A DNA stretch of 64,000 nucleotides from Eukaryota sp. GEM-RC1 (Eukaryota), in the NCBI GenBank assembly GCA_040285855.1, contig JAUFOQ010000002.1, positions 2,108,001-2,172,000 on the forward strand, given 5' to 3'. A model generated the notes under the pieces. The model was not told where the DNA came from. It saw only the letters and a list, made by a program, of their open reading frames with translations, and searched no databases. Within the stretch, counting starts at the first letter, position 1; each line of letters opens with the position of its first letter. The position numbers and the translations under genes are program-made. Shown here piece after piece: positions 2,289 to 57,160 of the stretch.

Positions 2289-3249
2289 TTTTGACCATGT
2301 GACACTGATCACATGGTATAATTCGAATACAAATTACTACTAGTAGTACAATTAAAACATCCTTAATCACGGAAATGATGATGAACAATATCATCTATAG
2401 TAGTGGTAGCTTATATCTGTCTGCCCATTGGTAAAATAAAGGATTATTTAATATTGTTGCCAGCACACTACTTATCATAAGAAAATGTTCAATAACATTC
2501 GGTGTTTACTAATTCTAGAAGATCTTACACCCTACCCAGTTATTCTTGATGTAAACGGTATCTGAAAAGATAGCATATTTTAATTAAACCGTGTAATTTG
2601 CGTAGAAATGCAATCTGTTTGAACTGAAACAAATCTGTTCAACCAGTCTGCATTTCTGACTATAAAATACATAATATTATGTCACCTCTTAGTCACAAGT
2701 AGTGATTGATGAGATAGATCGCAGACATTACATCAGTGTTTTTGTTTGGTTTAACATCATAAACAAGTTCTCTCCATCCTTGGTCTTGCACTTTGTGAAT
2801 GCAACAACATTATAGTACCAACTTACAGGGGTATGAGGTTATGGTAATAAGTTAAGACTCATAACAATTAGCAAATATTATGATGTTAGGACCTAATTCA
2901 AGATAATACAAATAGGGACATTGTATTAGATCAATTCAGATCGAAAAAAGGTGAACTGGACTGATTGAACTGTCACACGAACTTTGGTGAATTCGTTCGG
3001 ATATGTTTTCTGTTCATCTCCTTAGTAGTTATAGTGGCTCAGGTTTATGTTTGGAATTACAAAAAATCAGTTCGAAGTGCTGGTGTGTGGAAAAATTGAA
3101 GTTTAATAAAACTGCGAAGCTATTTCTCCAATAATACCAAAGTTAGAAATACAAAATAGCAAATGGAACAAATAAATATTTTGATTGAGCTTAGTAACAA
3201 CATTGAAATACAAATTTGTTTTACGTGGTTAAATTCACCTATGTTGATC

Positions 3250-4143
3250 CAGGGATCGAAAAAATATATTGCAATATATTTCTAGCATAAAAAATGTACA
3301 ATAAATATATTGAAAAATGTGATCATTGCAATAAATATATTGGAAACTGAGATGATTGCAATAAATAATTGCAATATATTGCAATATTTTGGGTCAAATC
3401 TGGTCTGTGAAAATGTAGAAAACTGAGATGTTTTGCTGAAATTTAGTGACTGAAAATCAACCACTACTAGAACGTCAGCGCTTTTAGTCGGTTACCCTTT
3501 CAGATACATGCATAAGAACATTAATTATACTTCTTAACGTACTGTTAATCTCGACACCGCTTCTAATCATAATGTACGCTCACACTTCACAACACATCTT
3601 TCTACTTTGCTCTTCTGTTGGTATCAATACTTATTAACTTCAATGGTTCCTATGATGTGATGTACACACGTGTTTGAACTTTTCAGCGATTCGTCACCTA
3701 CGTATACCACGTTCATTACAGTCACTACATGATAAGACTTCCCGCTTCCTAAAACAGATTCTGGGCAGGGATCGAAAAAAATAAATTGTATTGCTGGGTG
3801 CCACTATGATTGGATCGTGTCTCTATTGATACGTAAATTAACACATGTACCAGTTTCCACAAATCTCATTCTTGGAGTATGTGGTGAGTGATGACAATAG
3901 AGATGTAGAGACCAACTGTAGGTCCCCTTTTAACTTTTTTTGTACTTGGAGTGGACATGTAGTAAAAGAAAGGGTTCTTATGAACAAGACTTGTTAGAGT
4001 TACTCTGCATAAATCTCGTTGTGACATATTGCAATAAACCCTTTGTTGCAATAAATATATTGCGCATCAAAAGACGTGCAATATTTATTGCAATATAATT
4101 TATTTCAATATATTGCAATACAATTATTTTTTTTCGATCCCTG
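3250..4143. mobile_element. hAT-like MITE, 894 bp, 8-bp TSD
   Basis: TIR CAGGGATCGAAAAAA / TTTTTTCGATCCCTG. TSD TGTTGATC at 3242-3249 and 4144-4151. An extra internal copy of the TIR lies at 3766. ATTGCAATA subterminal repeats. Confidence 0.88.
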
Positions 4144-4603
4144 TGTTGATCACATAAGTTTGAACACACGGATATAATGTTGTAACATCAAGGATAATTT
4201 GACTGGAATCAATCAATAAAGGGACCATGTAGTGAAGAATTAAATATTAAATCAAGACCGAACTTACAGAATAAGGGTTCAACTTTGCCACGAGATCCAT
4301 AAACTGAATAGCAGAGTGGAAAACACGTTTCAAAAAAAGCGTAGGTTAAAGAAAATGTTACAATGAATATAGAATCCCTTGTGCTTTGTACATTGATTAA
4401 AGAAACAACGAACAGTAAACTACAGAAAAGATGATCAGTTCGTTTAGTTCATGGAGGTGTGAACTGAAATAATCAACATCCCTCAAACAAATAAAAAGCA
4501 TAACTAAAACAAGATATCTGAAGTGAAGCTACACGGACGTTTTGCAGTAAGATTTGTATATCAATAAATTAACAATTTGTTTGTAATAGTGATCACTAAT
4601 AAT

Positions 4604-5744
4604 CTAAGGTTCACCCTGATACATACCTGAAGGTGTTGGTGAAGGCTGATCAATGCTGTTGTTATTGACCACAACGGTTGGCTGAGGAGCTGATTGGATG
4701 AGACTTTGAGTCTCAGAAGAAGACGAACGATTCTTACCAATGTAAGCGGCCACCATGCAAACACATATCGAAATAGCAAAAAGACACACACTAATAATAG
4801 CCAGTGGTTGACCCCAATTAGCAGGATACTTTGTTTCTTCAAAAGTGATATCATGAGCTTTGTTTTCCTCAATTTGTGTACCCTCTAAAATTATCTTCTC
4901 ATCAGATCCACGAGTAATAGGGACAATACAATATGGATCTTTCTCGAGTTGACATACGATTTCACATTTGGAAACATCGAAAGTACGCAAGAAGAAGTTG
5001 AACACGACATCTCCATCTGAAGAAAAAACAGAGTACTTGTTCTCAAGTACCCAGAAATAAGCATCTGAGTGACTGGCTGTTAGCCTATTAGAAAATTCCT
5101 TCATATTGAGAACAGCCTGAGACATAATGTAGAAGAAGGAGTTCCCTTTAGTGTACTTCTTCATGTTTTCCTGTCCACGCAGAATGTAGAAATCAATTGG
5201 TCTGGATACAAACACAGCGTACTCCACATCTAAAGTTAAGAGGAGCACGAAGAAACACACATGACTGGGGATTGAGATTGAGTTGATAGTATTCAAACTC
5301 CTTACCAGGTACCAATACAGGACGATTCATCTTGATACCGGTAAACTCATTGTTGTAGTTCGGGATACCATTACATTTGTAGACTTTTCCAGTATAGAAG
5401 TTGTTCCAATAATCCTTATCCTTAAAGCGAACTTCAGACACTTTGGAGGTATCCAAGTCAAAAAGCAAAGTTGACTTAGGGACGACTGAGAGAACACGGT
5501 CACTGTTGGAATAGCTGCCGGCTATCAGTCCAACAACAACAAGAACAATCAAAACCAAGACAAAGTAGCAACAATAATTATAAGATGCAGGACTCCAATA
5601 CCAAACAGGAGATGGACCGAACCAAGAAGATGAATAGAATCGAGGACCTCCCCGATGTTTAGAACTGTGATTCGAACGTCCATGCCGGCGTCTTCCAGAG
5701 CCAAGAGAGCGAGCAGGGACTTCACCACTGCGACTACCGTTCAT
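4604..5744 (-). CDS. Two-TM membrane protein resembling the APD1-4 N/middle-domain family, with no RING seen; exons 5744-5261 and 5229-4604
   Basis: The two ORFs join in frame through a 31-nt intron at 5230-5260 (GTGTGT...CTTAACTTTAG), giving LNPQSYVEYAVFVSRPIDFYILRG. Hydrophobic segments lie near both ends. The family call is from pattern resemblance only. Confidence 0.6.
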
Positions 5745-9128: not shown

Positions 9129-12100
9129 ATGGATCCCACCTTGTCTCGAAATCTTAGAGATCGCGGGGTCAGTGATGACTTTATCTCCCTGCTGGAAAAA
9201 AATGCTGTGGTGACGTTCCAAGACTTAGCTGATGTGGTGGATGAAGACTGTTTACCGCCTGGAACATCAATGGACTTTGCTAGAGTCAAAAAACTGGTCC
9301 GAGCACGGGCTTCTGGTCACATTTCAGCTCCATCAAGAAACATTGTCGAAATCAACAACAATGAAAACGAAGCTCAATCTCCACCTTTTCGAAAGCCACG
9401 AAATGAACAAACACCAGTCCAGATACCTATCACCGTTCCAACACCAACACCTACAACAACCAAGAAGCCAATCTCGACTACACTCCAAGTAAAATCAGCT
9501 GGTGTACTTCCTCTCCGTTACACTGGCACTTTTCACGAATGTCTCCTCGCATGTGAACATCGAGAAGGATCTCTTTGTCTCAACTTCTTTGGAGGCGGTC
9601 TCAATTCTCTCGAGTCACCAAAAGATGGCGCTGTCCGTGAATTCCTAGAAGAATGTTCACTAGATCGTAATCATGCTCTTTCAACCTATCTCCAATCTGC
9701 AGAGATGAAACGAACACATCTTCCTCATGGAAAGTATGAGATGTTTGTCCTGGATATATCAACTGTACGCAATGACTATGCAAAACTCTTTTCCAGTTTG
9801 AATTCTGCCTTCACTCCTAATTCTGAGGTTAAAGGTGTACATTGGGTTACTTTGGATGATCTTCTTACGGCCTCTGGATCTGTTGGATATCCTTTTTCTT
9901 CATTTATTGTCAATTCACGTCCAATCCTCCATACTTTTCTTTCTAAACTACTTCTTGATCTACCTGTCAACGACCTCAAAGAGGATAAAATCTTGCCCAA
10001 ACACTTTCAACAGTTATTAACTGAACAACGTACTGAACTGGGCAAGTCTTTAAAGAAGAAATCATTACTTGATTGGTTTCCAAACTTTAAAGAATGGAGA
10101 TTGAAGAAGTTTGATCTCTTCTTGCCAAAAGATGAGGATCTTTCCCCATTCACTGTTGTAACTAAGAACGATGCACCGTTTGCACCTTTATTACAACAGC
10201 TGTCTCTACCCCAGCAAACTTCTCAACTTATCAGCACAATTAGAAAAGTAAATGTACCAGCTAGAAAATCTGCTTTTGACCAACTCTGTAGCAAATCAAA
10301 TCAAAGTTCTATTATTAAAGTATTCCATGGTACTCCTGAATCCTGGAGAGCTACTGCTATCGCTTTGAATGGTTTCGACTTGAAAATTAAGCTAGTCGGT
10401 AGAGCTTTTGGTGATGGAGTCTATTGTACAACTGATTCCAATCAAGCTTTATCTTACTCAAAGAGTCGCGGTTCGTTGTTGAGATGTGATGCAATGCTTG
10501 AAGCCAATTCTAAGAATGTCACTCCCCAAAGTAGACCTCCTGTATACGTGTTTCCTCAACCTCATCACGTGTTACCTGTATTGTTACTGGACTTTACTCC
10601 TGACAACTCAGCATTGTCAAAGAAGACGTTGACTGCCAAGCCAAAGCAGGATAAGATAATTGAAGCTAAAAGAAAACAGATGGCCAAGGAAGAGAAGGTT
10701 GTTGAAAAGGAATTGGAAAAACGATATGGTTCCATGGTTAAAAATTTTAAAAGTAGGATTGATCATCTTGCGAATTTGTTCTCTAGGACTCCTGATGAAA
10801 GTGCTAAACTCTACAAACTCTTAAAACAAGAATCACGATATTTCGAATCAAAATTGCCCATCTACTATCACCGATCTCAAATTGTTGACGCTTTACATAA
10901 CAATAACCTCCTAATTGTTGAGTGTGATACTGGTAGTGGGAAGAGCACAATGATTTGTCAATACGTGCATGATTACTATCAAGAGCTCTCAATTGGTAAA
11001 GGTGATTCTGACAAACGAAAGATCGCTATTCTCCAACCTCGCCGTGATAACGCTATTCAGCTAGCTTCCACCGTAGCTCAGTCTAGACACGGAGTTTGTG
11101 GTGATGAAGTGGGATATTCCATTGGACTAGGGTCTCAATGTACAACTGATAATACCAAGATTGAGTATTTGACACATGGGAAATTCCAACAAATGTCTGT
11201 CAATGCGGATAATGTTTTGAGGAATTTCAAATGTGTTATTGTCGATGAAGCTCATTTCAGAAGTATTCAAATTGATTTTGTGTTGAGTTTGTTGAAGCTA
11301 GTAATTGACAAAGCCAGAAATCAAAATATTTCTGATTTTAAAGTTATCATTACCACTGCAACGTTTGATAAGCAATTTCTCAATCTTTTAAATAATTTCT
11401 ATTCATCTGTTGCACAAGTTGAAATTCTCAAATTCAACATCCCTTCCTATCCCGTTCTTGTTCATAACATTGACGTCTTTGGCGATAATTACGACCAGGC
11501 CTTGGCCCATCTTTCCTTTGATTATTTCTCTAACGCCATAATCAATGGAGCTATCGACATGACAGTTAAGTTGCTTCAGTCTACCACTGACGGTGCAATC
11601 CTTGTGTTTTTACCCTCCAAATCTTCAATTGACAAAGCCTTATCTGTCTTCAAGTCAAAGTTTATGTCACATCATCAAGGATCTAACTCATTGACCTTCA
11701 CCGACAATCACTTCTCTTTCCTTGTTGATACTAAGAGTAAAGCTCAACCTCAAGTAAGAGTTGGGATATACGCTTTCCATGGAACCCTAACTAAAGCTGA
11801 AAGAACTCGAGCATTAGAAGCAGCTGAAGATCGTTGTGTTTACTTCAGTACAGACTTGGCAGAGACTGGCCTTACTATTAGAGATGTAAGATATGTAATT
11901 GATAGCGGATTTACTCAGAACGTAAGGTGGAATTCCAAGTCAAACATGGAAGAAATGACTCGGGAGTTAGTATCGAAGTCCAGTGCTATTCAAAGGAAAG
12001 GCAGAGCGGGGAGGACTAAGTCTGGGATTTGTATCAGACTGTATCCTGAATCTGTCTTTGAAAAAATGAAAGATGGACATGAACCAGCGATCAAAACAGG

Positions 12101-14257
12101 GCACGTTTTGAAATCAGTTCTGTCGTTTTTACATCTACAATCAACTGTCGCTGATTTTGAACTGATTGATCCCTTCCATGCACAGGTTTACCAAAATTCT
12201 GTTGATTTGTTGCAAAAGTAGAAGCGATTGTTGTCAACAACAATCGAGTTAAGATCACTGCCAATGGAAAAATCATTCTTCAATTGGGAGTATCTTTTGA
12301 AAATTCGTTGTTTTTAATTAATTCAATCAGAAATAACTGCTTAGAATCAGCTACAAAGATTGTTGCCTTGATGGTGTCTAATAGCGGAGCTTTGCTATCT
12401 CAGTTGGATAGTTCTACAAAACCCAAATTTTTAAATATGAGAGGCGACCACTCCACATTATTAAATATTTTCAACACTTATTTGACAAAGAGCTCAAGTG
12501 ACAGAAATCGCTGGTGTCGTGATATCGGATTGGACCCTTCTATACTAGACGATGCACGTGTCGCCTTTGATCATTTGACTGATACTCTTAGTCGTTTAGG
12601 TTACCCGGTGCAGGATAAAATTGATACCACGAAAGGTGATATCCATGATCATATCACGTGGACTTTGTGTTCCACATTTTTTAATAATTTAGGAGTTTTC
12701 AAGGAAGCTGGAAATGTCTCAAAGCAGTTCGTAATGTTTGATGAATCTGACCTTGCTTCTGTTGAGCAAGTTGATCCCAATCGAAATGATTCTGTCACGT
12801 TGGCTCTCAGTCACTCATCACTTCAATTCTGGAAGGATGAAGAGCTCTCGCCTAATGCTAATTACATTGTTTTCTCCTCGTTGATGTCCAATGTCACCCA
12901 TGATCCTGAAACTAGAGAGAAAACCTTTAAGAATTCTATCAATTTTGTTTCTTTCTGTACCACTGAGGACTTGGTCAGGAGTAGTCCTCAATGGAGAGCG
13001 GCAACCCTGGAAAAACAACTACAGAAGTTTTCTCGTGTCCGTTTTGACATTCCAATCACTCCAGATCAACAACGACTTCTTCTTTCAAATAGAGGTGAAC
13101 ATGTTAAGATACTAAAACAACAAATCAAGCGTGCTGATATCAGAATCACAAAGTCTGCCACTGGGCAAAATCAAGTCTCAGTTTCTTGTCCTTCAGGAGT
13201 CAAACATCACGTGGAGCGCCGTGTTGGAGAGTATTTGGACTCGCAAAAACCAGAAGTGATTGTCTTTAAGAACTTAGAAGGGGTTGACTTTGGTAAATTT
13301 ATTGGAAAGAAACGTTCAGCTGCTAATGATTTGGAGGCAAAGCTTGACAAAACACTGGAATCTATGGTATCTAAACCTTCAAAGGTCAAACTTGATATCA
13401 TTTCTAATCAAAATGAGCTCAGAGTCACAATCCCCAACATCCCTCCCCAGTTCACTTCAGTAATTGTTGGTTTGGTGCAGTCGGCGCTTGCTTCTTGTGT
13501 TACTGGAACTACTACCGTAGATCTATCTAATATTTCTTCCTCTGGATCTTTCTCTCAACATTTAAATCAAAATCCAAGACTGCTGAAATTAGTTTCGTCT
13601 GTTGTTCCTCGACCAAATGACAATAACAGAAACAATTGGGTTCTTCTCGTTGCTCACGTTGCTATTTGGGAAATTGGGTTGTCCTTATATGGTGGCTTCG
13701 TACGTGACTACGTCATCAGAAATCAACCAGCCAATGACGTGGACTGTTTAGTACCTCCTTCTTTAATGGGAAAAGTTCCATCAATGTTTAAACAGGCTCT
13801 CTCTAAGTACAATATTTCTTGTGGTTCACCCAGAACTAAAGGAAACGCTCATTGTATTGATGCGACTCTTCCTGATGGCAGTAATCTTGAAATTGATCTT
13901 ACACCATCAGATATGAAGATTCAAAAGCCCTACGTTGATGCTGATATTAATAACCTCATGGTTGACAAAACAGGATTGTTGCAGAAGATTAAAGGAGCTG
14001 GAGGTAGTCTTTGTAATCTTGCTGTATCAATCCAACATTGTCAAAACAAAGAGTTTGTGTTTTTCTATTCCTGTCAGGTGGACCCGAAAATGTGTGAAAG
14101 ACGGCTTAAAAAGATGTTGGGTAAGGGTTTTACTTGTTTATCACCTTTGCCTAGCTCAATGACACGGAAATTGACCAATTTCAATCAGTTGTTGAAACCA
14201 GACAAACAGTTTGATGTTAAATTTGACAATCTTCCACCGCATTTACAACTCCCTTAA
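9129..14257 (+). CDS. ~1700-aa multidomain protein: SAM-like + NUDIX + PARP-like ART + DEAH-box RNA helicase (HA2/OB) + two KH-like + Pol-beta/CCA-type nucleotidyltransferase; one -1 indel at ~12219
   Basis: Nudix box GGLNSLESPKDGAVREFLEECSL (~9594-9660). PARP motifs FHGT, GRAFGDGVY and VYVF..HVLP (~10310-10595). Helicase motifs DTGSGKST, DEAH, TAT, STDLAETGLTI and QRKGRAGR. Adding one base at ~12219 gives a continuous HA2-like LLQKLEAIVVNNNRVKITANGKIILQLG. KH-like segments LLSNRGEHVKILKQ and FIGKKR. NTase motif YGGFVRD..ANDVD at ~13690. Confidence 0.88.
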
Positions 14258-15587
14258 GCTTAATGTAGATTTAAATATTCTTATGTATAATATATTCATG
14301 TGATTTTCCTACATCGATTCTTGTTCAAATCACACATAATTTAACTCTACGAATATACCATTTCAAAGTACATGGAAGTAGTTTTCGAAACATGTATGTG
14401 ATCTGTCAAGACCGACAGAACTCGGCTCGGAAACAAAATAGGGAAAGGAAAGGGAAATGAAAACGATTCTAGTACTCCATGTACACCCATAACTTAACAT
14501 CTCAAGGACATTCAACAATTACTGTATCGATGTTAGATGAATCTTATGAGGTCACATGACCTGGAAGTAGAAGATAAACTGACATTACCAACTTTGGAGC
14601 AGGGACAGAGAAGATGGAATAAATATGCTGCAAAACATGGTTTTTCAGTAGCCCTATTCGGTAGTCCTGAAAACACAGGTTACGCTTAAAAGTAAGATGC
14701 CTCAGGTTAGCTAGAAAGCACTTCCATCGAAAGAAACAGACGTATAGTTGGTACAAACTGCGGCTTCAGCATATACGACCGTCGTCAAGGAGAATCATTG
14801 ACTGCTACAGCTAAGAACTTAACCCACAGTCATGCTCCTGTGGAGGACATCTGTTGCTTGCCCTGCTTATCTCCAGAACAGACCAGTCTGCTGGCACTTT
14901 TAAGTTTTCATGATACCAACAAAAAAATCCTTACTACTTTTCACAAACTCTCTGCAAAAAGAACTTGGACAAACAAATTCTTTTGACCTCAAGGGATATT
15001 TCCAATGTAAAATGGAAGTTGAAAAGAGTGCTGATGGCCATGTAATCGAGAAGTATAGTGATGATTACCACATTTTGCCCCAGTACGATGACGGGAACAG
15101 TGTTACTGGTTTTGTTGATTACAAAGAAGGGTCGGTGAATATATTTACAATGCAACTAAGCATTACAAGGAGTTCAAAAGCGAATGTTCATGTCTATGAA
15201 AGCAAATAGTGTTCACCTTCACCTAGGGATCTTGGCTTTCACCTATTTAATAAAAGTAAATTTATCCAAAGTAGTTAAAGGCAGTTTTTTGAAATGTATG
15301 TTTCATTTCCGACACTGTTCTGTTCTCTACTATTGACAACATAAGAAAAAAAAGCAACCAGTTCTTCGTTTTAGTTTGTGATAGCATACTTTCCTTGAAT
15401 TCCATTGATTTGATGATGGAGTGCCATATCAACAAGTCTAGGTGAGAAATCTTATCACACCATGAACTACTGTCAGAGATCGATCAATGAAAAACAGTAG
15501 TTGCTGAATAAAGAGACGTAGGTTGGGTCAGAAATTTGGAGAATGGACTGTTTCTAATTTTAAACAAAATTGGCGCAAATTTTCTTG

Positions 15588-17256
15588 ATGATCGCACGTC
15601 GCTATAGAACACTTAATCTTCACCATCCTTTAAGGAACGATCTTGATAGCAGTTGTTCTTCCGTAAATAAGGCTCCAGCCTTGTCCCGTATTCCTAAAGC
15701 CCTGGAATCTGTCATTGATCCTCAAGTGTTTGTTCCTAGCACACTCATCTTACTTCAGATCTCGCCGCCGTCTATCGGGATCTTCCAGGTGCCCTCCTGT
15801 TAAGAAAACCAACCAATCTGACTCTTCGCCACACCCTTCCCCACGATCTAATCTCTCCTTCTCTAAAACCAAGGCAATCTCCCCTGTTCAAGGCCGCTTC
15901 GGCGTTTCCACACAGAACTCGTCTCAAAAACAAAATATCAGCACTTCCTCAAAGACCGAATTCCTGAATCTTTCCCATTGGATGTGGCGTGAGGTAGGGG
16001 GAGAGTGGAAACCATATAGCACTCTGATTTCAGACAGAATTGAACTGAAATGGTGTGACTTTGGCAAAAGAACATTGGAGCCCAATTTTACCACCACTTT
16101 GACTCGATTAAATGACAATCAAGAACAAAACTATTCTATTAATATCCTAACAATGAAACAGAAGAACCTCAAGACACTCTTCACACGTTCAATCAAGAGA
16201 GACAAAATTGATGTTGAAGTTCGTGGTAAAGGTAAGTGGCAGTTCAGTACCTCTTTGGGATGGGATACGTTCGACGACAGCTGTCAAGATCATTTGGAAC
16301 AATCATTTATCAACTACTGCACATCATCTGGTCCGTCTATTTGTTGGCTTACAATTTCAAAGTCGACTTACAAGATTGATCTTGCCCGTGGTATTCGATG
16401 TAATGTAGACACTTTGTCTGTACGTAGGCTACGAAGATTGTACAATGATTTATCCACAACAAAGGTCGCTGGCAAATCAGTAAACAGTGTTGTACTTCCA
16501 TCCAATTCTTCGCTGTCACTTCTAGCCGTGAGTGAAGCTAGATTTCCAAGCAGCTCTAAGTCTAAAACTACTTCAACCAATTTGGGCGGTCACAACACTC
16601 GCTTGAACCAGTTGCTTTCACCCACGACACCATTATTTACATCAAAGTCAAGAGATCAAGTGCAAGCAGTTCTTTGTCATATTCTTCTTTGGAAATGTAG
16701 ATGTACTATCTACGGTGGCTATGTAAGAGATTTCGTTATACGAGGCACACCAGCAAATGATATTGACGTTGTAGCACCGTCATCAGAACTTGGACCAGTA
16801 ATCAAGAAGTTCATATCAGAAACAGGCAAATCTGGACTGTTCATAAGTAAAGAACGCATAACAGTGATAGCCTATGTTGTCCAAAAGCTGACCATCACTG
16901 TTTCTGATTTTGATTTTGAAGTGGACTTCACCGCTCCTGGTGCTTCCCGTAAAGCTCAAGGAGCTGCCCCACCCTACGTTGAAGCTGATGTTTCAAATCT
17001 CCAACTTTCAGTCGATAAAAAGCTACATCTTAAGGAACCACTTGCTGACCCTCATGTAGACTTTAATGTTATTATAGATCACTGTCTTAGAAAACAGTTT
17101 GTGTTCTACTATGATCTAACAAAGTACCCAAACCTTTGCTACAGATTGAAAAGGAGGGTGCAGCGTGGATGGACGTGTTTGACGGCGATTCCCAAGCGTC
17201 ATCATCATGTGTTCCACAAACAGAATCATTTGTATCGACCTGTGAAAGCTCGTTAA
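15588..17256 (+). CDS. Tandem WWE-WWE + CCA/poly(A)-polymerase-like nucleotidyltransferase, ~545 aa; exons 15588-15727 and 15759-17256 (start codon tentative)
   Basis: WWE1 WMWREVGGEWKPYSTLISDRIE..YSINILTMKQKNLKTLFTRSIKR. WWE2 WQFSTSLGWDTFDDSCQDHLE..YKIDLARGIRCNVDTLSVRRLRR. NTase YGGYVRD..ANDID. A 31-nt intron at 15728-15758 (GTTTGT...CTTACTTCAG) joins the 15570 and 15715 ORFs in frame. Confidence 0.85.
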
Positions 17257-18163: not shown

Positions 18164-20396
18164 TCAGGATGACAGTGATGCTCTTATAGAACTCTTTCGA
18201 TCAAGAAATGACTGTATTTCACTCGCAGTTGTTATCCTCTTTTTCCATTTAAAGTTCCTTTCTGTTCTTGGTACATCATTTGCAGTCGTAAAAGATCTCT
18301 TTTGCCTCTCCCATGCCTCCAGAACATGTCACAGACAGCATTAATGGGGTTCCAGTCACAAAGTTTGTCAAAACAATGGATTGCAGTGAATAAACGATCG
18401 TTTCGTCTGTTTGCATTAAGAACTTCGATACACTTTCCTACTAAATGATGATGAAGAAGTTTAATTAGGGGAGGTGGAAGTGGAAGCTTGGGAATGACAG
18501 TCCCACTGAGAGAACTATCAATAAGGTTAGAATAATCATTAGTCAATCCAATCAAAATAGATTGATTGAAAGAGGATTCTGAAGCAGGTTCTGATAAGTT
18601 AGGTAAACACGCAAACTCTAACAATGAAGACAACAACTTGTTATCAAATGAATGACCAATTCTTTGTTCTAAAACAGAAAGTAATTCGGAAATAGTGACA
18701 GTTTCCCTACTAGAACTTATAATCCAGATTTCCGAAAGCAGGAGAAATAGACGGTCATTATACAAAGCCAAATGACGTGGTGCATTGTCAATGTCAAATG
18801 AGATAAACAGATTCATCATATTAGAAACTAAACAACTCAATAATGTACTTAGGTTATAAGTTTCATAGTAAGGAACTGTGGAGTCGTAATACTTGTCTCT
18901 GCCAGCTTCACCACATGAATAACCACTTAAAGGGAAAGTGAAAGATATTGCCATGAGAACAACATCAACAAATCGTACTTTTGGAAAGGTTTCACGATAT
19001 CCTTCCAAAAACAAGCGTCGTTGATTCAAGTAACGAATGACAAGAAACAACAAAAGACGGTATTCTCAACCTCACATACTTCTTCAAACAAATGAATCCA
19101 AGATGAATGGATATCTGGAGTAGACCATTCATTACCATAAGAGTGGTTACTGAAACTTTCAATTATGGATAAGAGCATTTCAACAGAAGATCTTGATCCT
19201 TCTAGTAGCAACTGGCGATGTTCAGGGGCAAGAACATTATCAAGCGAGTCTAGGAATTTTTCAGATATAGGAACACTCCCTTGACAACCACCAAGACTGT
19301 GATTACTTCTAAGAAATTGAATAGCAGGGGTTGCATACTTGAGGATGACACTGTAGTGGCGAGGAACATGTAAGGAATCAAAATACTCCAAGTCTAGTTC
19401 CAAGTCAGGCTCTTCAAACTTGTCCAAAGGCTGAACTTTCTCATACTGAATCCTTGCAACTGATGAAGAATCACTATAGGTAGTAGGAAAAACAAGATCT
19501 GTGGATATTTTGTAGTTATTCAGAGTGGAGAAAACAACAGTTGCCGCATGCGGATTATTGGCAAGAAATACAGTCCATAAATTACAATTGTCATCAGAAT
19601 TGAAAAAGTTCAACACTTCTTCATACTTTTGGACAGTATTTGAAGTAGATGCCAACCTGTAATTTTAAAAAGCCGGCACTTTGATTCATTAATTGCAAAC
19701 AAAGCGACCATCTTTTCAAAAGGAAGAAAACGATCTTGATGAAAAAGAAACATTTGTCCCGTTTTACCATCATACAATTGATCATAAAACTCTTTCAATC
19801 CAAAATCTCCTCTAAAGAAAGCAACTTTACACCTTTGATGGAAAAACAAGTGAACTTTGGAAGAAAACGCATAATAGGAATCATTCTGACGAACTTCTTC
19901 AGCAATGTGGTGAGTTAAACTACCACTTGGTATGAATTTAACCTTGTTTCCGTGTTCATCATTAGGATTGTTCACATCAAGTGCATTCCATAGAAGAAGA
20001 ATGTCTTGATTGAAAGGTGTTGGAAGTTTCTGTGGTTGGTTAACAATCTGAGCTGGTGTATATTGACGCTTAGAATGTGTTTCCGTCACCTTGTGGGGGG
20101 AAGAAACGGGAGCGTCTGAAATAGAAGATGAAATATATGTTGTGTTCGTTAAACTTCAAGAAGAAGTTGCGGAACAATCTGTTAACAGCGACTGCAGAGT
20201 AACCTGCTGAGTAATCAGGAACCAGTTGTTCGATGAGATAGGATCGGAATTCATAAGTGTCAACGACGAGGTACAGAGGTTGAGTTTGGTTAGAACCTAT
20301 AACACGTTCCTCTAATGCATGCCTGACGTTATGATGAGAACTATCGAGAAGAAAAGGAATCCATTCTTTGGAAAGAATCACAAGAGGAGACAACAT
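18164..20396 (-). CDS. Array gene copy 1, uncharacterised ~740-aa protein, possibly degenerate PIN (FAM120/Asteroid-like); several indels; distinct C-terminus
   Basis: Four consecutive ORF pieces are collinear with copies 2-5, and the breaks lie in homopolymers. Confidence 0.7.
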
Positions 20397-21563
20397 GAGG
20401 TAGTTCAACAGTATTAACTTGACGAAAAGTCGGAGGAGTCTTGAGAAAGGAAAAATTGGGATTTTACTGAAAACAATTTAGAATTCAACCTCCAGACAAA
20501 TTGGGATTTTAGATGACCGGCGTGTTGTCTTTGAAACCCGTTGACTGATTGATATATTTTAGGAATTGTTTACTTATAATGTATAGATGAAACATTGTAA
20601 ATTCGGTTTAACGATTGCGTTCTCGTTGCAGAAATTTCAACATTTATAGACAATGATTCTGTAGTACATAGAAACGCTATAACATACAACTGAGTCACGA
20701 AGTTGTGACGAAATTCAATATTTATATATGATGGTATTGGTCATATACAGCGCCTATCAGCGATAGTTTATTCAAACTTGGCATTAATAAAAATCTATCA
20801 AATTTGTTCTGTTTTCAGGGTGGAAATAACTGTGGTTTCTTGTGATAACAACATGCAGACCTTAAAACTGGATTTTGATGAAGACAAACTCGAAGTCCAT
20901 TCATTATGGTTAAAGATGATTGGTTTAGTGGAATTGAAATTGAAAAATACGGTTATATCGCTGAACACAAACAATTTGAGTTATCATTAAGACAATAATA
21001 CTCATGTAAATTGGTTTACTTGATGACTCCAAAAATAAATACATAAGACACTAAATGATTTCTAATGTAATAAGTTGGGACTATTGATTGAACTGAGCTA
21101 ATGAAACTACGGACTGGGATTTGACCGTTCAAGCTGAAACAAACAGAGGTGAGCCCAGGTGTAACACTAATCATTTTAGGACGAAACGACAAATACACAA
21201 CTTAGTGACCGAATCTAGAACTCAGATAAAACTTCTCTCACAAACGGCAAATACCCACTACTAAAGACTATCAGATTCAAAGATGTTTACGGCATTGACT
21301 TTGTCAGAAGAAAATCCTCTTGTAAAACGGAAGACTATCACTTCAAAAGAGTACAAGAAAACACATGACTGATCTGTTTTTATGAAAATAAACAACAACA
21401 AACGACTCCCCTCTAAACTCAAGTTAGAAATGGAAGTAGCAGAAGTTGGTTATTTAATAAATTATGGATCGTCAACATTACATGTTTTTCATGTATATAG
21501 CTAAAGCTCACATGTTTAGTAACTTAATATGAATTTGAAATTGTACCCATTTGCTGTATTGAT

Positions 21564-22168
21564 CAGGCTTCACAAAAGTAGTAAAGTGCTAAAGTGACTT
21601 TATTTTACTTTACTTTAAAGTTTTGGAAAGGTAAAGTAACAGACCTCAAACTTGTTTAGTTTGCCCTCTGAGCACTGCAAATGACTCTTTTATACCAGTA
21701 TAACATGTTCTATCATAGGAACTCAACAAAAACGCAAAACAAAAAACGATGTAAAATTGTTTCTAACAAAAACTTATTCAACCAAGATCCATTATTCAAA
21801 CGTCAGGTCACTTCAGCTCACTTCAATAGATCAATCAGTATCTGACAGTTCGAGATTGTCCCCTTTAAAAACAGAAACCAGTTCAATTCCGATACACTAT
21901 TCGTTATGTCTCTTCAGTTTTGGATAACTCTCGACCCATTACCTTCTGGTATCCTTTGTTCGGAGTTGAGTGAAGTCCTGTGTTAAAGGGAAGCGGAAAC
22001 TGAATATCTAAACTGAAGAGAGAAAGTTGTGAAAAGAGGATTGAGATCAGGTCAAACTTTATTGACCTTAAAGTAACTTTTTAGCTGAAGTAAAAGTAAA
22101 GCTTAAAGTAAAGTAAATAACTTTACTTTACTTTAATTTTGAATTTTGGACTACTTTAGTGAAGCCTG
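21564..22168. mobile_element. hAT-like MITE, 605 bp, 8-bp TSD (copy 1)
   Basis: TIR CAGGCTTCAC.AAAGTAGT / ACTACTTTAGTGAAGCCTG. TSD GTATTGAT on both sides. AAAGT/ACTTT subterminal repeats. Confidence 0.9.
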
Positions 22169-22220
22169 GTATTGATCCAATGAAACAGTTTTAATAGAAT
22201 TAATAAGTTCAACTTCAGGA

Positions 22221-24554
22221 CTACAACGATACTTTACGAAAACTCTTTTCAACATTAACAACATTAGCTGTAATAAATAGTTTAACAAATTTGCAGGTCA
22301 AACAGCTGATCGAAGATGCATACTCATCATCCAGGCTTAGGACAATTTTTTTTTATCAAGAAATGACTGTATTTCACTCGCTGTTGTTGTCCTCCTATTT
22401 CCATTTAAAGTTCCTTTCTGTTCTTGGTACATCATTTGCAGTCGTAAAAGATCTCTTTTGCCTCTCCCATGCCTCCAGAACATGTCACAGACAGCATTAA
22501 TGGGGTTCCAGTCACAAAGTTTGTCAAAACAATGGATTGCAGTGAATAAACGATCGTTTCGTCTGTTTGCATTAAGAACTTCGATACACTTTCCTACTAA
22601 ATGATGATGAAGAAGTTTAATTAGGGGAGGTGGAAGTGGAAGCTTGGGAATGACAGTCCCACTGAGAGAACTATCAATAAGGTTAGAATAATCATTAGTC
22701 AATCCAATCAAAATAGATTGATTGAAAGAGGATTCTGAAGCAGGTTCTGATAAGTTAGGTAAACACGCAAACTCTAACAATGAAGACAACAACTTGTTAT
22801 CAAATGAATGACCAATTCTTTGTTCTAAAACAGAAAGTAATTCGGAAATAGTGACAGTTTCCCTACTAGAACTTATAATCCAGATTTCCGAAAGCAGGAG
22901 AAATAGACGGTCATTATACAAAGCCAAATGACGTGGTGCATTGTCAATGTCAAATGAGATAAACAGATTCATCATATTAGAAACTAAACAACTCAATAAT
23001 GTACTTAGGTTATAAGTTTCATAGTAAGGAACTGTGGAGTCGTAATACTTGTCTCTGCCAGCTTCACCACATGAATAACCACTTAAAGGGAAAGTGAAAG
23101 ATATTGCCATGAGAACAACATCAACAAATCGTACTTTTGGAAAGGTTTCACGATATCCTTCCAAAAACAAGCGTCGTTGATTCAAGTAACGAATGACAAG
23201 AAACAACAAAAAGACGGTATTCTCAACCTCACATACTTCTTCAAACAAATGAATCCAAGATGAATGGATATCTGGAGTAGACCATTCATTACCATAAGGG
23301 TGGTTACTGAAACTTTCAATTATGGATAAGAGCATTTCAACAGAAGATCTTGATCCTTCTAGTAGCAACTGGCGATGTTCAGGGGCAAGAACATTATCAA
23401 GCGAGTCTAGGAATTTTTCAGATATAGGAACACTCCCTTGACAACCACCAAGACTGTGATTACTTCTAAGAAATTGAATAGCAGGGGTTGCATACTTGAG
23501 GATGACACTGTAGTGGCGAGGAACATGTAAGGAATCAAAATACTCCAAGTCTAGTTCCAAGTCAGGCTCTTCAAACTTGTCCAAAGGCTGAACTTTCTCA
23601 TACTGAATCCTTGCAACTGATGAAGAATCACTATAGGTAGTAGGAAAAACAAGATCTGTGGATATTTTGTAGTTATTCAGAGTGGAGAAAACAACAGTTG
23701 CCGCATGCGGATTATTGGCAAGAAATACAGTCCATAAATTACAATTGTCATCAGAATTGAAAAGTTCAACACTTCTTCATACTTTTGGACAGTATTTGAA
23801 GTAGATGCCAACCTGTAATTTTAAAAAAAAGCCGGCACTTTGATTCATTAATTGCAAACAAAGCGACCATCTTTTCAAAAGGAAGAAAACGATCTTGATG
23901 AAAAAGAAACATTTGTCCCGTTTTACCATCATACAATTGATCATAAAACTCTTTCAATCCAAAATCTCCTCTAAAGAAAGCAACTTTACACCTTTGATGG
24001 AAAAACAAGTGAACTTTGGAAGAAAACGCATAATAGGAATCATTCTGACGAACTTCTTCAGCAATGTGGTGAGTTAAACTACCACTTGGTATGAATTTAA
24101 CCTTGTTTCCGTGTTCATCATTAGGATTGTTCACATCAAGTGCATTCCATAGAAGAAGAATGTCTTGATTGAAAGGTGTTGGAAGTTTCTGTGGTTGGTT
24201 AACAATCTGAGCTGGTGTATATTGACGCTTAGAATGTGTTTCCGTCACCTTGTGGGGGAAGAAACGGGAGCGTCTGAAATAGAAGATGAAATATATGTTG
24301 TGTTCGTTAAACTTCAAGAAGAAGTTGCGGAACAATCTGTTAACAGCGACTGCAGAGTAACCTGCTGAGTAATCAGGAACCAGTTGTTCGATGAGATAGG
24401 ATCGGAATTCATAAGTGTCAACGACGAGGTACAGAGGTTGAGTTTGGTTAGAACCTATAACACGTTCCTCTAATGCATGCCTGACGTTATGATGAGAACT
24501 ATCGAGAAGAAAAGGAATCCATTCTTTGGAAAGAATCACAAGAGGAGACAACAT
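22221..24554 (-). CDS. Array gene copy 2 (~775 aa after correcting indels)
   Basis: ORFs 23766-24566 and 22337-23584, plus a 3' tail homologous to copy 4. Confidence 0.72.
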
Positions 24555-25721
24555 GAGGTAGTTCAACAGTATTAACTTGACGAAAAGTCGGAGGAGTCTT
24601 GAGAAAGGAAAAATTGGGATTTTACTGAAAACAATTTAGAATTCAACCTCCAGACAAATTGGGATTTTAGATGACCGGCGTGTTGTCTTTGAAACCCGTT
24701 GACTGATTGATATATTTTAGGAATTGTTTACTTATAATGTATAGATGAAACATTGTAAATTCGGTTTAACGATTGCGTTCTCGTTGCAGAAATTTCAACA
24801 TTTATAGACAATGATTCTGTAGTACATAGAAACGCTATAACATACAACTGAGTCACGAAGTTGTGACGAAATTCAATATTTATATATGATGGTATTGGTC
24901 ATATACAGCGCCTATCAGCGATAGTTTATTCAAACTTGGCATTAATAAAAATCTATCAAATTTGTTCTGTTTTCAGGGTGGAAATAACTGTGGTTTCTTG
25001 TGATAACAACATGCAGACCTTAAAACTGGATTTTGATGAAGACAAACTCGAAGTCCATTCATTATGGTTAAAGATGATTGGTTTAGTGGAATTGAAATTG
25101 AAAAATACGGTTATATCGCTGAACACAAACAATTTGAGTTATCATTAAGACAATAATACTCATGTAAATTGGTTTACTTGATGACTCCAAAAATAAATAC
25201 ATAAGACACTAAATGATTTCTAATGTAATAAGTTGGGACTATTGATTGAACTGAGCTAATGAAACTACGGACTGGGATTTGACCGTTCAAGCTGAAACAA
25301 ACAGAGGTGAGCCCAGGTGTAACACTAATCATTTTAGGACGAAACGACAAATACACAACTTAGTGACCGAATCTAGAACTCAGATAAAACTTCTCTCACA
25401 AACGGCAAATACCCACTACTAAAGACTATCAGATTCAAAGATGTTTACGGCATTGACTTTGTCAGAAGAAAATCCTCTTGTAAAACGGAAGACTATCACT
25501 TCAAAAGAGTACAAGAAAACACATGACTGATCTGTTTTTATGAAAATAAACAACAACAAACGACTCCCCTCTAAACTCAAGTTAGAAATGGAAGTAGCAG
25601 AAGTTGGTTATTTAATAAATTATGGATCGTCAACATTACATGTTTTTCATGTATATAGCTAAAGCTCACATGTTTAGTAACTTAATATGAATTTGAAATT
25701 GTACCCATTTGCTGTATTGAT

Positions 25722-26324
25722 CAGGCTTCACAAAAGTAGTAAAGTGCTAAAGTGACTTTATTTTACTTTACTTTAAAGTTTTGGAAAGGTAAAGTAACAG
25801 ACCTCAAACTTGTTTAGTTTGCCCTCTGAGCACTGCAAATGACTCTTTTATACCAGTATAACATGTTCTATCATAGGAACTCAACAAAAAACGCAAAACA
25901 AAAACGATGTAAAATTGTTTCTAACAAAAACTTATTCAACCAAGATCCATTATTCAAACGTCAGGTCACTTCAGCTCACTTCAATAGATCAATCAGTATC
26001 TGACAGTTCGAGATTGTCCCCTTTAAAAACAGAAACCAGTTCAATTCCGATACACTATTCGTTATGTCTCTTCAGTTTTGGATAACTCTCGACCCATTAC
26101 CTTCTGGTATCCTTTGTTCGGAGTTGAGTGAAGTCCTGTGTTAAAGGGAAGCGGAAACTGAATATCTAAACTGAAGAGAGAAAGTTGTGAAAAGAGGATT
26201 GAGATCAGGTCAAACTTTATTGACCTTAAAGTAACTTTTTAGCTGAAGTAGTAGAAGCTTAAAGTAAAGTAAATAACTTTACTTTACTTTAATTTTGAAT
26301 TTTGGACTACTTTAGTGAAGCCTG
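25722..26324. mobile_element. hAT-like MITE (copy 2, duplicated with the array unit)
   Basis: Same TIRs and same GTATTGAT TSD as 21564-22168. Confidence 0.9.
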
Positions 26325-26376
26325 GTATTGATCCAATGAAACAGTTTTAATAGAATTAATAAGTTCAACTTCAGGA

Positions 26377-28709
26377 CTACAACGATACTTTACGAAAACT
26401 CTTTTCAACATTAACAACATTAGCTGTAATAAATAGTTTAACAAATTTGCAGGTCAAACAGCTGATCGAAGATGCATACTCATCATCCAGGCTTAGGACA
26501 ATTTTTTTTTATCAAGAAATGACTGTATTTCACTCGCTGTTGTTGTCCTCCTATTTCCATTTAAAGTTCCTTTCTGTTCTTGGTACATCATTTGCAGTCG
26601 TAAAGATCTCTTTGCCTCTCCCATGCCTCCAGAACATGTCACAGACAGCATTAATGGGGTTCCAGTCACAAAGTTTGTCAAAACAATGGATTGCAGTGAA
26701 TAAACGATCGTTTCGTCTGTTTGCATTAAGAACTTCGATACACTTTCCTACTAAATGATGATGAAGAAGTTTAATTAGGGGAGGTGGAAGTGGAAGCTTG
26801 GGAATGACAGTCCCACTGAGAGAACTATCAATAAGGTTAGAATAATCATTAGTCAATCCAATCAAAATAGATTGATTGAAAGAGGATTCTGAAGCAGGTT
26901 CTGATAAGTTAGGTAAACACGCAAACTCTAACAATGAAGACAACAACTTGTTATCAAATGAATGACCAATTCTTTGTTCTAAAACAGAAAGTAATTCGGA
27001 AATAGTGACAGTTTCCCTACTAGAACTTATAATCCAGATTTCCGAAAGCAGGAGAAATAGACGGTCATTATACAAAGCCAAATGACGTGGTGCATTGTCA
27101 ATGTCAAATGAGATAAACAGATTCATCATATTAGAAACTAAACAACTCAATAATGTACTTAGGTTATAAGTTTCATAGTAAGGAACTGTGGAGTCGTAAT
27201 ACTTGTCTCTGCCAGCTTCACCACATGAATAACCACTTAAAGGGAAAGTGAAAGATATTGCCATGAGAACAACATCAACAAATCGTACTTTTGGAAAGGT
27301 TTCACGATATCCTTCCAAAAACAAGCGTCGTTGATTCAAGTAACGAATGACAAGAAACAACAAAAAGACGGTATTCTCAACCTCACATACTTCTTCAAAC
27401 AAATGAATCCAAGATGAATGGATATCTGGAGTAGACCATTCATTACCATAAGGGTGGTTACTGAAACTTTCAATTATGGATAAGAGCATTTCAACAGAAG
27501 ATCTTGATCCTTCTAGTAGCAACTGGCGATGTTCAGGGGCAAGAACATTATCAAGCGAGTCTAGGAATTTTTCAGATATAGGAACACTCCCTTGACAACC
27601 ACCAAGACTGTGATTACTTCTAAGAAATTGAATAGCAGGGGTTGCATACTTGAGGATGACACTGTAGTGGCGAGGAACATGTAAGGAATCAAAATACTCC
27701 AAGTCTAGTTCCAAGTCAGGCTCTTCAAACTTGTCCAAAGGCTGAACTTTCTCATACTGAATCCTTGCAACTGATGAAGAATCACTATAGGTAGTAGGAA
27801 AAACAAGATCTGTGGATATTTTGTAGTTATTCAGAGTGGAGAAAACAACAGTTGCCGCATGCGGATTATTGGCAAGAAATACAGTCCATAAATTACAATT
27901 GTCATCAGAATTGAAAAAGTTCAACACTTCTTCATACTTTTGGACAGTATTTGAAGTAGATGCCAACCTGTAAATTTTAAAAAAAAGCCGGCACTTTGAT
28001 TCATTAATTGCAAACAAAGCGACCATCTTTTCAAAAGGAAGAAAACGATCTTGATGAAAAGAAACATTTGTCCCGTTTTACCATCATACAATTGATCATA
28101 AAACTCTTTCAATCCAAAATCTCCTCTAAAGAAAGCAACTTTACACCTTTGATGGAAAAACAAGTGAACTTTGGAAGAAAACGCATAATAGGAATCATTC
28201 TGACGAACTTCTTCAGCAATGTGGTGAGTTAAACTACCACTTGGTATGAATTTAACCTTGTTTCCGTGTTCATCATTAGGATTGTTCACATCAAGTGCAT
28301 TCCATAGAAGAAGAATGTCTTGATTGAAAGGTGTTGGAAGTTTCTGTGGTTGGTTAACAATCTGAGCTGGTGTATATTGACGCTTAGAATGTGTTTCCGT
28401 CACCTTGTGAGGGAAGAAACGGGAGCGTCTGAAATAGAAGATGAAATATATGTTGTGTTCGTTAAACTTCAAGAAGAAGTTGCGGAACAATCTGTTAACA
28501 GCGACTGCAGAGTAACCTGCTGAGTAATCAGGAACCAGTTGTTCGATGAGATAGGATCGGAATTCATAAGTGTCAACGACGAGGTACAGAGGTTGAGTTT
28601 GGTTAGAACCTATAACACGTTCCTCTAATGCATGCCTGACGTTATGATGAGAACTATCGAGAAGAAAAGGAATCCATTCTTTGGAAAGAATCACAAGAGG
28701 AGACAACAT
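26377..28709 (-). CDS. Array gene copy 3
   Basis: ORFs 27921-28721, 26551-28026 and 26493-26726 are collinear with the other copies. Confidence 0.72.
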
Positions 28710-29878
28710 GAGGTAGTTCAACAGTATTAACTTGACGAAAAGTCGGAGGAGTCTTGAGAAAGGAAAAATTGGGATTTTACTGAAAACAATTTAGAATTCA
28801 ACCTCCAGACAAATTGGGATTTTAGATGACCGGCATGTTGTCTTTGAAACCCGTTGACTGATTGATATATTTTAGGAATTGTTTACTTATAATGTATAGA
28901 TGAAACATTGTAAATTCGGTTTAACGATTGCGTTCTCGTTGCAGAAATTTCAACATTTATAGACAATGATTCTGAAGTACATAGAAACGCTATAACATAC
29001 AACTGAGTCACGAAGTTGTGACGAAATTCAATATTTATATATGATGGTATTGGTCATATACAGCGCCTATCAGCGATAGTTTATTCAAACTTGGCATTAA
29101 TAAAAATCTATCAAATTTGTTCTGTTTTCAGGGTGGAAATAACTGTGGTTTCTTGTGATAACAACATGCAGACCTTAAAACTGGATTTTGATGAAGACAA
29201 ACTCGAAGTCCATTCATTATGGTTAAAGATGATTGGTTTAGTGGAATTGAAATTGAAAAATACGGTTATATCGCTGAACACAAACAATTTGAGTTATCAT
29301 TAAGACAATAATACTCATGTAAATTGGTTTACTTGATGACTCCAAAAATAAATACATAAGACACTAAATGATTTGTAATGTAATAAGTTGGGACTATTGA
29401 TTGAACTGAGCTAATGAAACTACGGACTGGGATTTGACCGTTCAAGCTGAAACAAACAGAGGTGAGCCCAGGTGTAACACTAATCATTTTAGGACGAAAC
29501 GACAAATACACAACATAGTGACCGAATCTAGAACTCAGATAAAACTTCTCTCACAAACGGCAAATACCCACTACTAAAGACTATCAGATTCAAAGATGTT
29601 TACGGCATTGACTTTGTCAGAAGAAAATCCTCTTGTAAAACGGAAGACTATCACTTCAAAAAGAGTACAAGAAAATACATGACTGATCTGTTTTTATGAA
29701 AATAAACAACAACAAACGACTCCCCCTCTAAACTCAAGTTAGAAATGGAAGTAGCAGAAGTTGGTTATTTAATAAATTATGGATCGTCAACATTACATGT
29801 TTTTCATGTATATAGCTAAAGCTCACATGTTTAGTAACTTAATATGAATTTGAAATTGTACCGATTTGCTGTATTGAT

Positions 29879-30481
29879 CAGGCTTCACAAAAGTAGTAAA
29901 GTGCTAAAGTGACTTTATTTTACTTTACTTTAAAGTTTTGAAAAGGTAAAGTAACAGACCTCAAACTTGTTTAGTTTGCCCTCTGAGCACTGCAAATGAC
30001 TCTTTTATACCAGTATAACATGTTCTATCATAGGAACTCAACAAAAACGCAAAACAAAAAACGATGTAAAATTGTTTCTAACAAAAACTTATTCAACCAA
30101 GATCCATTATTCAAACGTCAGGTCACTTCAGCTCACTTCAATAGATCAATCAGTATCTGACAGTTCGAGATTGTCCCCTTTAAAAACAGAAACCAGTTCA
30201 ATTCCGATACACTATTCGTTATGTCTCTTCAGTTTTGGATAACTCTCGACCCATTACCTTCTGGTATCCTTTGTTCGGAGTTGAGTGAAGTCCTGTGTTA
30301 AAGGGAAGCGGAAACTGAATATCTAAACTGAAGAGAGAAAGTTGTGAAAAGAGGATTGAGATCAGGTCAAACTTTATTGACCTTAAAGTAACTTTTAGCT
30401 GAAGTAAAGTAAAGCTTAAAGTAAAGTAAATAACTTTACTTTACTTTAATTTTGAATTTTGGACTACTTTAGTGAAGCCTG
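29879..30481. mobile_element. hAT-like MITE (copy 3, duplicated with the array unit)
   Basis: Same TIRs and GTATTGAT TSD. Confidence 0.9.
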
Positions 30482-30533
30482 GTATTGATCCAATGAAACA
30501 GTTTTAATAGAATTAATAAGTTCAACTTCAGGA

Positions 30534-57105: not shown

Positions 57106-57160
57106 AATCAATGTTGTGTGGGAAGTTGTCAATTTAGTCCATCTAGATGTCAGCCTACAT

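Follow-up and report, generated by a model that had tools for sequence, protein, structure and literature searches.

Class II nucleotidyltransferases (NTases) include the CCA-adding enzymes and bacterial poly(A) polymerase (PAP) I. Those that have been characterised extend RNA, and in the CCA-adding enzymes the RRD of motif B selects ribose. A second motif, EDxxR, serves as the template for the base (PMC2532741, PMC7947759). In particular, when the EDxxR arginine of E. coli PAP is exchanged for another residue, the enzyme incorporates A, C and U randomly (PMC2532741), and the CC-adding enzymes deviate only slightly from the pattern, tolerating QRD and xDxxR (PMC7947759). In this work, we describe two genes of Eukaryota sp. 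GEM-RC1, each of which ends in a class II-like NTase domain without RRD or EDxxR. They lie in a stretch of 64,000 nucleotides (contig JAUFOQ010000002.1, positions 2,108,001 to 2,172,000), referred to below as the window; gene coordinates are positions within it, and the GEM-RC1 genes are read from one assembly. The window is eukaryotic, containing alpha-tubulin and the flagellar gene IFT57, and its source is presumably a free-living anaerobic metamonad flagellate.

Reduced relatives of these enzymes have been described in viruses. A BTB-NTase of Pandoravirus (cluster 7) has DFD in place of RRD and no EDxxR, keeps two downstream arginines, and has been proposed to have relaxed specificity and a role in tRNA maturation (10.1101/2023.12.02.569716). 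The phage protein Gad2, a predicted NTase, counteracts the Gabija defence system and is toxic when expressed, its mechanism being left open (10.1101/2023.05.01.538930), and a Gad2-like phage NTase is cytotoxic as well (10.64898/2026.09.15.751885). In the interferon-induced PARPs of animals, RNA-binding, WWE and macro domains occur together, and WWE binds ADP-ribose (PMC10057411).

The window NTases belong to a real and conserved family that is related to, but distinct from, Gad2. Loss of the class II motifs alone is already known from a viral protein; the notable part is the stable fusion of the domain to RNA-helicase and ADP-ribose machinery across protists. An earlier note on this DNA had treated the rewired substrate pocket as particular to the locus and the enzymes as minimal. 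The first view does not hold: the Pandoravirus preprint describes the same losses, so that such a pocket is already in print, and phage Gad2-like and giant-virus proteins have it in common. The second overlooks that the NTases are fused to NUDIX, PARP, DEAH, KH-like and WWE domains, and it is these that we regard as the best clue to NTase function. In fact, both NTase domains are C-terminal modules of larger helicase/PARP/WWE proteins, not stand-alone enzymes.

Gene 1 (9129..14257, + strand) ends in NTase domain 1 (13571..14257, +), a class II head plus shortened neck as judged by motifs, profile and model, with GGFVRD at 13691-13708, DVD at 13736-13744, EID at 13889-13897, PYVDADINN at 13928-13954 and the stop at 14257. 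Gene 2 (15667..17256, +) ends in NTase domain 2 (16597..17256, +; motifs and conservation), with GGYVRD at 16714-16731, DID at 16759-16767, EVD at 16918-16926, PYVEADVSN at 16972-16998 and the stop at 17256. All the motifs quoted in the earlier note (GGxVRD, DxD, EID/EVD, PYVDADINN/PYVEADVSN) are therefore present, and its statement that the template motif, body and tail are missing is borne out, since EDxxR is absent from both domains and both genes stop right after the neck.

A search profile of ten NTase domains was compared with 1.84 billion cluster representatives, and the resemblance is far beyond chance: 471 clusters are matched at E<=0.001 (the top 150 of them were listed), of which 211 reach 1e-10 and 98 reach 1e-30. 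For the conservation analysis, 164 aligned rows were reduced to the 122 with at least 160 match positions, viral-like and outgroup proteins being left out. At the catalytic site of these 122 domains, G is kept in 100%, R in 99%, D in 99%, and the two aspartates of DxD in 97% and 98%; the third carboxylate is D in 89% and E in 5%. On this pattern the NTase domains look catalytically intact.

The specificity motifs are another matter. RRD occurs at motif B in 0/122 domains, and [ED]DxxRxxR in 1/122. In a sequence alignment with E. coli CCA and PcnB (RRD-L/F-T-I-N), the viral-type KCDFTINN and TFDFTVC of Gad2, the family keeps the motif B aspartate in register (D 84%, E 14%) and gains D/S-x-x-N, the downstream asparagine of which is near-invariant (98%). 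Motif B is thus, to judge from the alignment, diverged or rewritten rather than absent, which refines the earlier note. An R..K pair is also kept (R 97%; K 88%, R 9%), roughly aligned with the two arginines after EDxxR; note that this register, like that of motif B, comes from sequence alignment and not from superposition. In 108/122 cases, no more than 40 residues separate the end of the domain from the C-terminus. PolyA_pol_RNAbd (PF12627) was found in none of the 79 homologues scanned, while the E. coli controls do match. Because of these three features, the missing RRD, the single template match and the absence of PF12627, the window NTases are not CCA-adding enzymes or PAP I by their defining motifs, as the earlier note had held for CCA enzymes. 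The RNA-binding and Arg-rich C-terminal domains of PAP I are likewise lacking.

The final structural model of the NTase domain, built from a 26-sequence alignment, has a mean predicted local distance difference test (pLDDT) score of 95.7; it replaced an earlier two-sequence model with a poor C-terminal half (pLDDT 55). When it is compared with 48,161 solved chains using VIA-align, the best matches are class II CCA-adding enzymes and bacterial PAP, with Z 8.8-10.4 over 155-173 residues. The top match is 4wby_A (Z 10.4, root-mean-square deviation 3.6, 166 residues aligned), and the top six Foldseek matches are likewise CCA-type enzymes (E 9e-6). Since both programs place class II CCA/PAP structures first, the modelled domain is a class II head with a short neck. 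The MenT/TglT toxin (Z 8.8) and ANT(2'') (Z 8.6) align over only about 100 residues, and TENT and CD-NTase structures reach Z 6-7, mostly over about 93 residues; TENT5/FAM46 has Z 6.7 over 172 residues and ranks seventh in Foldseek. At the sequence level, searching the PDB with one domain gave nothing useful, and the profile gave only weak CCA matches (best E 0.012). Compared with class II CCA/PAP I (PF01743; 4wby, 3h37, 3aql, 1miv), the family shares the head and neck (Z ~9-10), GGxVRD...DxD, the third carboxylate, the motif B aspartate and two basic residues after motif D, but it lacks RR, EDxxR, body and tail, is only 13-18% identical, and forms the C-terminal module of helicase/PARP proteins.

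The best feature matches in the Atlas are phage clusters annotated as Gad2 or PolyA_pol (0.95). A Gad2-like profile (phage SPbetaL7 Gad2 plus eight phage relatives) aligns with the family over 141 columns (hhalign probability 95.7%, E 9.5e-9), a span that includes the C-terminal H...F...RxxK...G[WFY] block. This half is reached only by profile-profile comparison; single-sequence comparisons with Gad2, E. coli CCA and E. coli PcnB are confined to motif A. The nucleotidyltransferases of PHROG 1614 are matched by 20/26 members of the alignment at E<=0.1. With Gad2, which the Atlas lists under PF26128 but which itself matches no such model in the Pfam copy used, and with PHROG 1614, the family shares the minimal layout and xxD-F/A-T/D instead of RRDFT. 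Gad2 differs from the window domains in having GGAITS instead of GGxVRD and Q instead of D at the third carboxylate (Q/E across the Gad2-like set); it is a phage anti-defence protein on a separate branch, without ADP-ribose or helicase domains, whereas the window genes are eukaryotic.

In BFVD, the best structural matches are predicted structures from Mimiviridae, Pithovirus and Klosneuvirus, with E down to 6e-10. These giant-virus minimal NTases have a similar fold, but they are viral and some have BTB, RING, F-box or ankyrin partners. The profile DUF5769 matches the window proteins at E 0.018 and 0.3 and the best homologue at 1.2e-4, all short of the Pfam cut-off. The Pandoravirus BTB-NTase, which we liken to the family by its published description and not by sequence comparison, is without the third carboxylate kept in the protist proteins. 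A FastTree phylogeny, in which CCA/PAP enzymes are represented by no more than two outgroups, unites the eukaryotic domains in a single branch, adjoined by giant-virus-like proteins and then by Gad2-like ones; because support at the deep nodes is low, we claim no direction of transfer between viruses and eukaryotes. In a scan of viral contigs, none of 405 pattern matches proved to be a relative by the eukaryotic profile, and the homologue P0018 yielded none either; P0021 found one giant-virus locus (L015), in which a gene at 4001-4900 encodes a minimal NTase (CDFTANNL) with a C-terminal RING finger. A tblastn search of phages with domain 1 gave two matches at E=5, of which the first was rejected, its protein being unrelated by inspection.

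The Pfam scan covered 79 of the 138 new matches, chosen for length. PARP, WWE, Macro or NUDIX domains are present in 41/79, and helicase domains in 30/79, including 22/26 of the long proteins in the first batch. Two layouts recur: type A, (Macro)-NUDIX-ART-DEAH-KH-NTase, in which ART is the PARP-type ADP-ribosyltransferase, and type B, DEAH-...-RING/IBR-like-ART-WWE-WWE-NTase. Among 20 type A proteins compared, there is hardly any variation in the H-G-T of the ART or in the helicase motifs, and most of them have an intact Nudix box; HGT and GxxxY of the ART are kept in 20/20, and the aligned third-strand window is without Glu in most, the register of this third position being judged from the known PARP motifs. 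In type B, a simple pattern search finds H-G-T in 12/13, and the RING/IBR-like modules are seen as IBR in P0135 and weakly in P0011, and as RING in P0042. Further partners include RRM (P0082) and cold-shock (P0057) domains. As separate observations, P0009 joins its NTase and WWE domains to a macrodomain of the microbial PARG type, which is a further eraser of ADP-ribose, and rarer fusions involve a ricin-type lectin domain, a Ulp1-type protease, and a kinase plus PARP (L013 6176-7609; P0127; P0077).

Among 30 proteins whose sources were looked up are representatives from Paulinella, Aphanomyces (both types), Lagenidium, Pedospumella, Choanoeca, Syssomonas, Carpediemonas, Chilomastix, Kipferlia, and the GEM-RC1 and TZLM1-RC isolates, most others being metagenome proteins. 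The family thus extends over metamonads, oomycetes, a chrysophyte, a rhizarian and holozoans, to which the Atlas structure search adds rotifer PARP clusters. The mixture of mono-ART-like, Macro, WWE, KH and RNA-binding domains resembles that of the antiviral PARPs (PARP9, 10, 12, 13, 14), and type B resembles the helicase-KH-RBR layout of plant DEAH11/12-type proteins. We know of no animal antiviral PARP or plant DEAH11/12-type protein with a nucleotidyltransferase or NUDIX domain; unlike either group, GEM-RC1 gene 1 has helicase, ART and NTase in one chain. No paper describing a eukaryotic NTase-helicase/PARP fusion was found in the literature searched, most subscription journals lying outside it.

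Domains 1 and 2 are about 32% identical as proteins and show almost no DNA similarity. In the NTase tree, gene 1 clusters with type A relatives from sister isolates (SH-like approximate likelihood ratio test, SH-aLRT, 99) and gene 2 with the type B relatives P0005 and P0008-P0011 (SH-aLRT 100); by these placements the two are old paralogues. A recent tandem duplication was rejected on the same grounds, that is, low protein identity, almost no DNA similarity and separate branches. Two NTase copies are also adjacent in 3/14 metagenome loci (L004, L010, L011), as in the window, although several of the 14 probably trace to a single species or a small number of related ones, and many of the contigs are short. 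For example, in L004 the NTase-bearing genes lie tail to tail (1821-2465 on + and 2734-3396 on -), and the L011 pair lies back to back. For P0014 (type A) and P0107 (PARP-NTase-UIM), the longest contig is in each case 17388 bases in length, and their genes may also lie next to each other.

Across eukaryotes, the NTase tree is discordant with architecture, requiring 10 changes. A single clade of type A NTases was rejected by the approximately unbiased (AU) test (p=0.0004), which was run after the first tree with a quick search; some of the B labels in it rest on WWE in fragments alone, and the deep branches are weak. This discordance hints that the NTase module has been swapped or converted between architectures. 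Both trees pair the NTases of P0046 (type B) and P0070 (type A), two Aphanomyces stellatus proteins, as sisters (support ~91), suggesting that the module was swapped or the gene converted there.

Gene 1 was delineated from its open reading frames and the orthologue P0004, and reads NUDIX - ART/PARP - DEAH helicase - HA2 region - tandem KH-like - NTase, with all domains on the + strand. The NUDIX hydrolase domain (9528..9866; PF00293 E=3.4e-6) has an intact Nudix box when aligned with 19 type A homologues. It is followed by the ART (10230..10601, the end being estimated from the sequence), for which PF00644 gives E=6.8e-6, just short of the curated cut-off. This ART keeps HGT and GxGxY and has a hydrophobic residue at the catalytic-Glu position, so that it would be mono-ART-like. 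In the DEAH-box RNA helicase core (10875..12017; PF00270 E=2e-11, PF00271 E=4e-14), motifs I, II (DEAH), III and VI are intact by their alignment columns. The tandem KH-like domains directly upstream of the NTase (13010..13528) match KH clusters in the Atlas structure search (TM 0.40-0.59) and gave no match in the Atlas feature search; KH Pfam matches occur in the homologues P0012, P0034 and P0045.

A frameshift at a short A run (12206..12221, +) splits gene 1. Read through the break, the gene has 1709 codons; P0004 is unbroken, also of 1709 residues, and aligns colinearly with it in two segments, residues 10-1036 and 1033-1709, with an identity of about 46%. Among repeat copies at 18-29 kb of the window that are at least 99.5% identical, 8/9 one-base indels fall within homopolymer runs, which make up 19% of bases, and for all four copies compared the figure is 18/30. 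Because P0004 is unbroken and colinear and the indels of the window favour homopolymers, the frameshift is probably a sequencing or assembly error. The alternative of an intron at 12222-12283 was dismissed, since P0004 aligns colinearly without a gap.

Gene 2 reads WWE - WWE - NTase and, by comparison with its type B relatives, is a short derivative of that type. Its start is uncertain: the first in-frame ATG is at 15982, and the database model P0003, which equals gene 2 at 100% identity over 498 residues, prepends 47 residues from another frame (15588-15728). The two WWE domains (15976..16449, +) are found by PF02825 in 2 stretches (E=4e-18) and by tblastn with P0005.

As to function, our tentative reading, at a probability of roughly 0.4, is that these minimal class II NTases add non-templated nucleotides to RNA 3' ends within a predicted antiviral or RNA-surveillance machine. 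We favour RNA 3'-end tagging because the characterised class II enzymes act by extending RNA, because the protist domains retain the third carboxylate, and because KH-like domains and helicase are found in the place of the lost tRNA-binding half. In this mechanism, the NTase would be an active enzyme, and with the amino-acid template lost, base choice would be relaxed or set by new residues such as the D/S-x-x-N after the motif B aspartate. The KH-like domains and helicase would substitute for the tRNA-binding body and tail and bring the RNA end, and the added tail would mark the RNA or serve the DEAH helicase as a 3' handle, tailing enzymes being known to act for helicases in TRAMP. ART, NUDIX, Macro and WWE would write, erase and read ADP-ribose on one particle, as in the animal antiviral PARPs, and gene 2 would be recruited to ADP-ribosylated targets through its WWE domains.

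Several points weigh against this reading. The antiviral role is predicted solely by analogy with animal PARPs and viral relatives, and Gad2 blocks a protein defence system. The viral proteins closest in fold carry RING, BTB, F-box and ankyrin domains, and such partners point to protein targets. Among the homologues, ADP-ribose domains are at least as frequent as helicases (41/79 against 30/79), and 23/53 proteins of the second scan batch have no Pfam match. Gene 2 has no recognisable RNA-binding domain, the linker of about 100 residues in P0005 being shortened to about 43. In gene 1, which is frameshifted in this assembly, the GxxG loop of KH is degenerate (GKKR); it is intact in several orthologues.

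The prominence of ADP-ribose domains could point to another substrate. The ART would write mono-ADP-ribose on protein or RNA, WWE or Macro would bind it, the NTase would join a nucleoside monophosphate (NMP) to a ribose hydroxyl, and NUDIX would trim the product. We consider such nucleotidylation of ADP-ribose doubtful, and the boldest of the alternatives; it draws on the fact that no partners are commoner than the domains that write, read and erase ADP-ribose, and on gene 2, which consists only of WWE-WWE-NTase. The H-G-T of the ART, kept in 20/20 type A and 12/13 type B proteins, fits this scheme, as does the ADP-ribose binding of WWE (PMC10057411); moreover, OAS1, of the Pol-beta family, labels the 2'-OH terminus of ADP-ribose (PMC9794712). 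OAS represents a different branch, however, and the phage and giant-virus relatives are without ADP-ribose domains among the matches seen. Co-fusion also indicates a shared pathway, not a shared substrate, and we know of no class II-fold enzyme that nucleotidylates ADP-ribose. In its broadest and equally doubtful form, the idea would make these proteins a pan-protist innate-immune family, in which DEAH and KH sense RNA, ADP-ribose is written, read and erased, and a virus-related NTase caps ADP-ribose with a nucleotide.

The partners of the viral relatives, together with the RING/IBR-like modules of type B, would also suit protein NMPylation, that is, the transfer of AMP, UMP or GMP to a hydroxyl of a target protein, from a virus or from the host, that the fused domains would recruit. 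Gad2, a predicted NTase whose expression is toxic and which overcomes Gabija, agrees with this, but its substrate is not given in the accessible part of the report (10.1101/2023.05.01.538930). Gad2 moreover differs from the family at motif A and at the third carboxylate, and type A is dominated by RNA-handling domains, so that we regard NMPylation as unlikely.

A sensor-plus-enzyme layout, the lack of a primer-binding body and tail, and immune-type companion domains recall the logic of OAS and cGAS, in which case the helicase would sense RNA and the NTase would make a free linear or cyclic oligonucleotide. Such a second-messenger synthase is rather improbable: the alignments with CD-NTase and TENT structures mostly span only about 93 residues (Z 6-7), as opposed to 155-173 for class II, and no effector gene was seen beside the loci examined. 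Still less probable is an inactive scaffold domain or a pair of locally decaying pseudogenes, to which the frameshift of gene 1 and the unclear start of gene 2 might point, since catalytic residues are 94-100% conserved in the 122 domains, P0004 is unbroken and of equal length, and homopolymer indels are common in the window. Finally, an unusual CCA-, CC- or A-adding or tRNA-repair enzyme is very improbable, in spite of the closest solved folds, the QRD and xDxxR tolerated in CC-adding enzymes (PMC7947759) and the tRNA maturation proposed for the similar Pandoravirus domain (10.1101/2023.12.02.569716), because RRD is found in 0/122 and the template in 1/122, 108/122 domains end close to the C-terminus, and the motif losses go well beyond those of CC-adding enzymes.

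The rest of the window contains several other genes. At 18200-37400 (-), a tandem array holds five copies of an uncharacterised gene, spaced by about 4.1-4.6 kb and 92-99.7% identical; up to 729 residues are open in one copy, there is no Pfam match, and the copies differ by one-base indels, mostly within homopolymer runs. A RHD3/Sey1-like GTPase gene at 43374-45701 (+) extends over three overlapping frames, probably reflecting further assembly indels. Two related protein kinases with coiled-coil tails lie at 46933-48249 (+) and 55107-57159 (-); one has a terminal ubiquitin domain without the C-terminal LRGG, and the other, which starts with a Sina-type RING, is spread over two reading frames. 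A PIF1-like helicase fragment at 53095-53616 (-) is possibly, at a guess, a Helitron remnant.

Antiviral immunity in protists is poorly known. The NTase described here is a conserved and, to judge from its residues, apparently active module that is carried on two long-lived helicase/ADP-ribose architectures in several eukaryotic supergroups, and to which proteins of giant viruses and Gad2, the anti-defence protein of phages, are close structural counterparts. Because the domain is small (about 225 residues) and its model is of high confidence, a single assay could name the product. Its identity would show what a class II polymerase does without template motifs and would offer a lead on the action of Gad2, and either a new tag on RNA or a new modification linked to ADP-ribose might come to light. 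If ADP-ribose capping were true, it would represent a new composite modification, and it would provide a handle on phage Gad2 and the giant-virus relatives.

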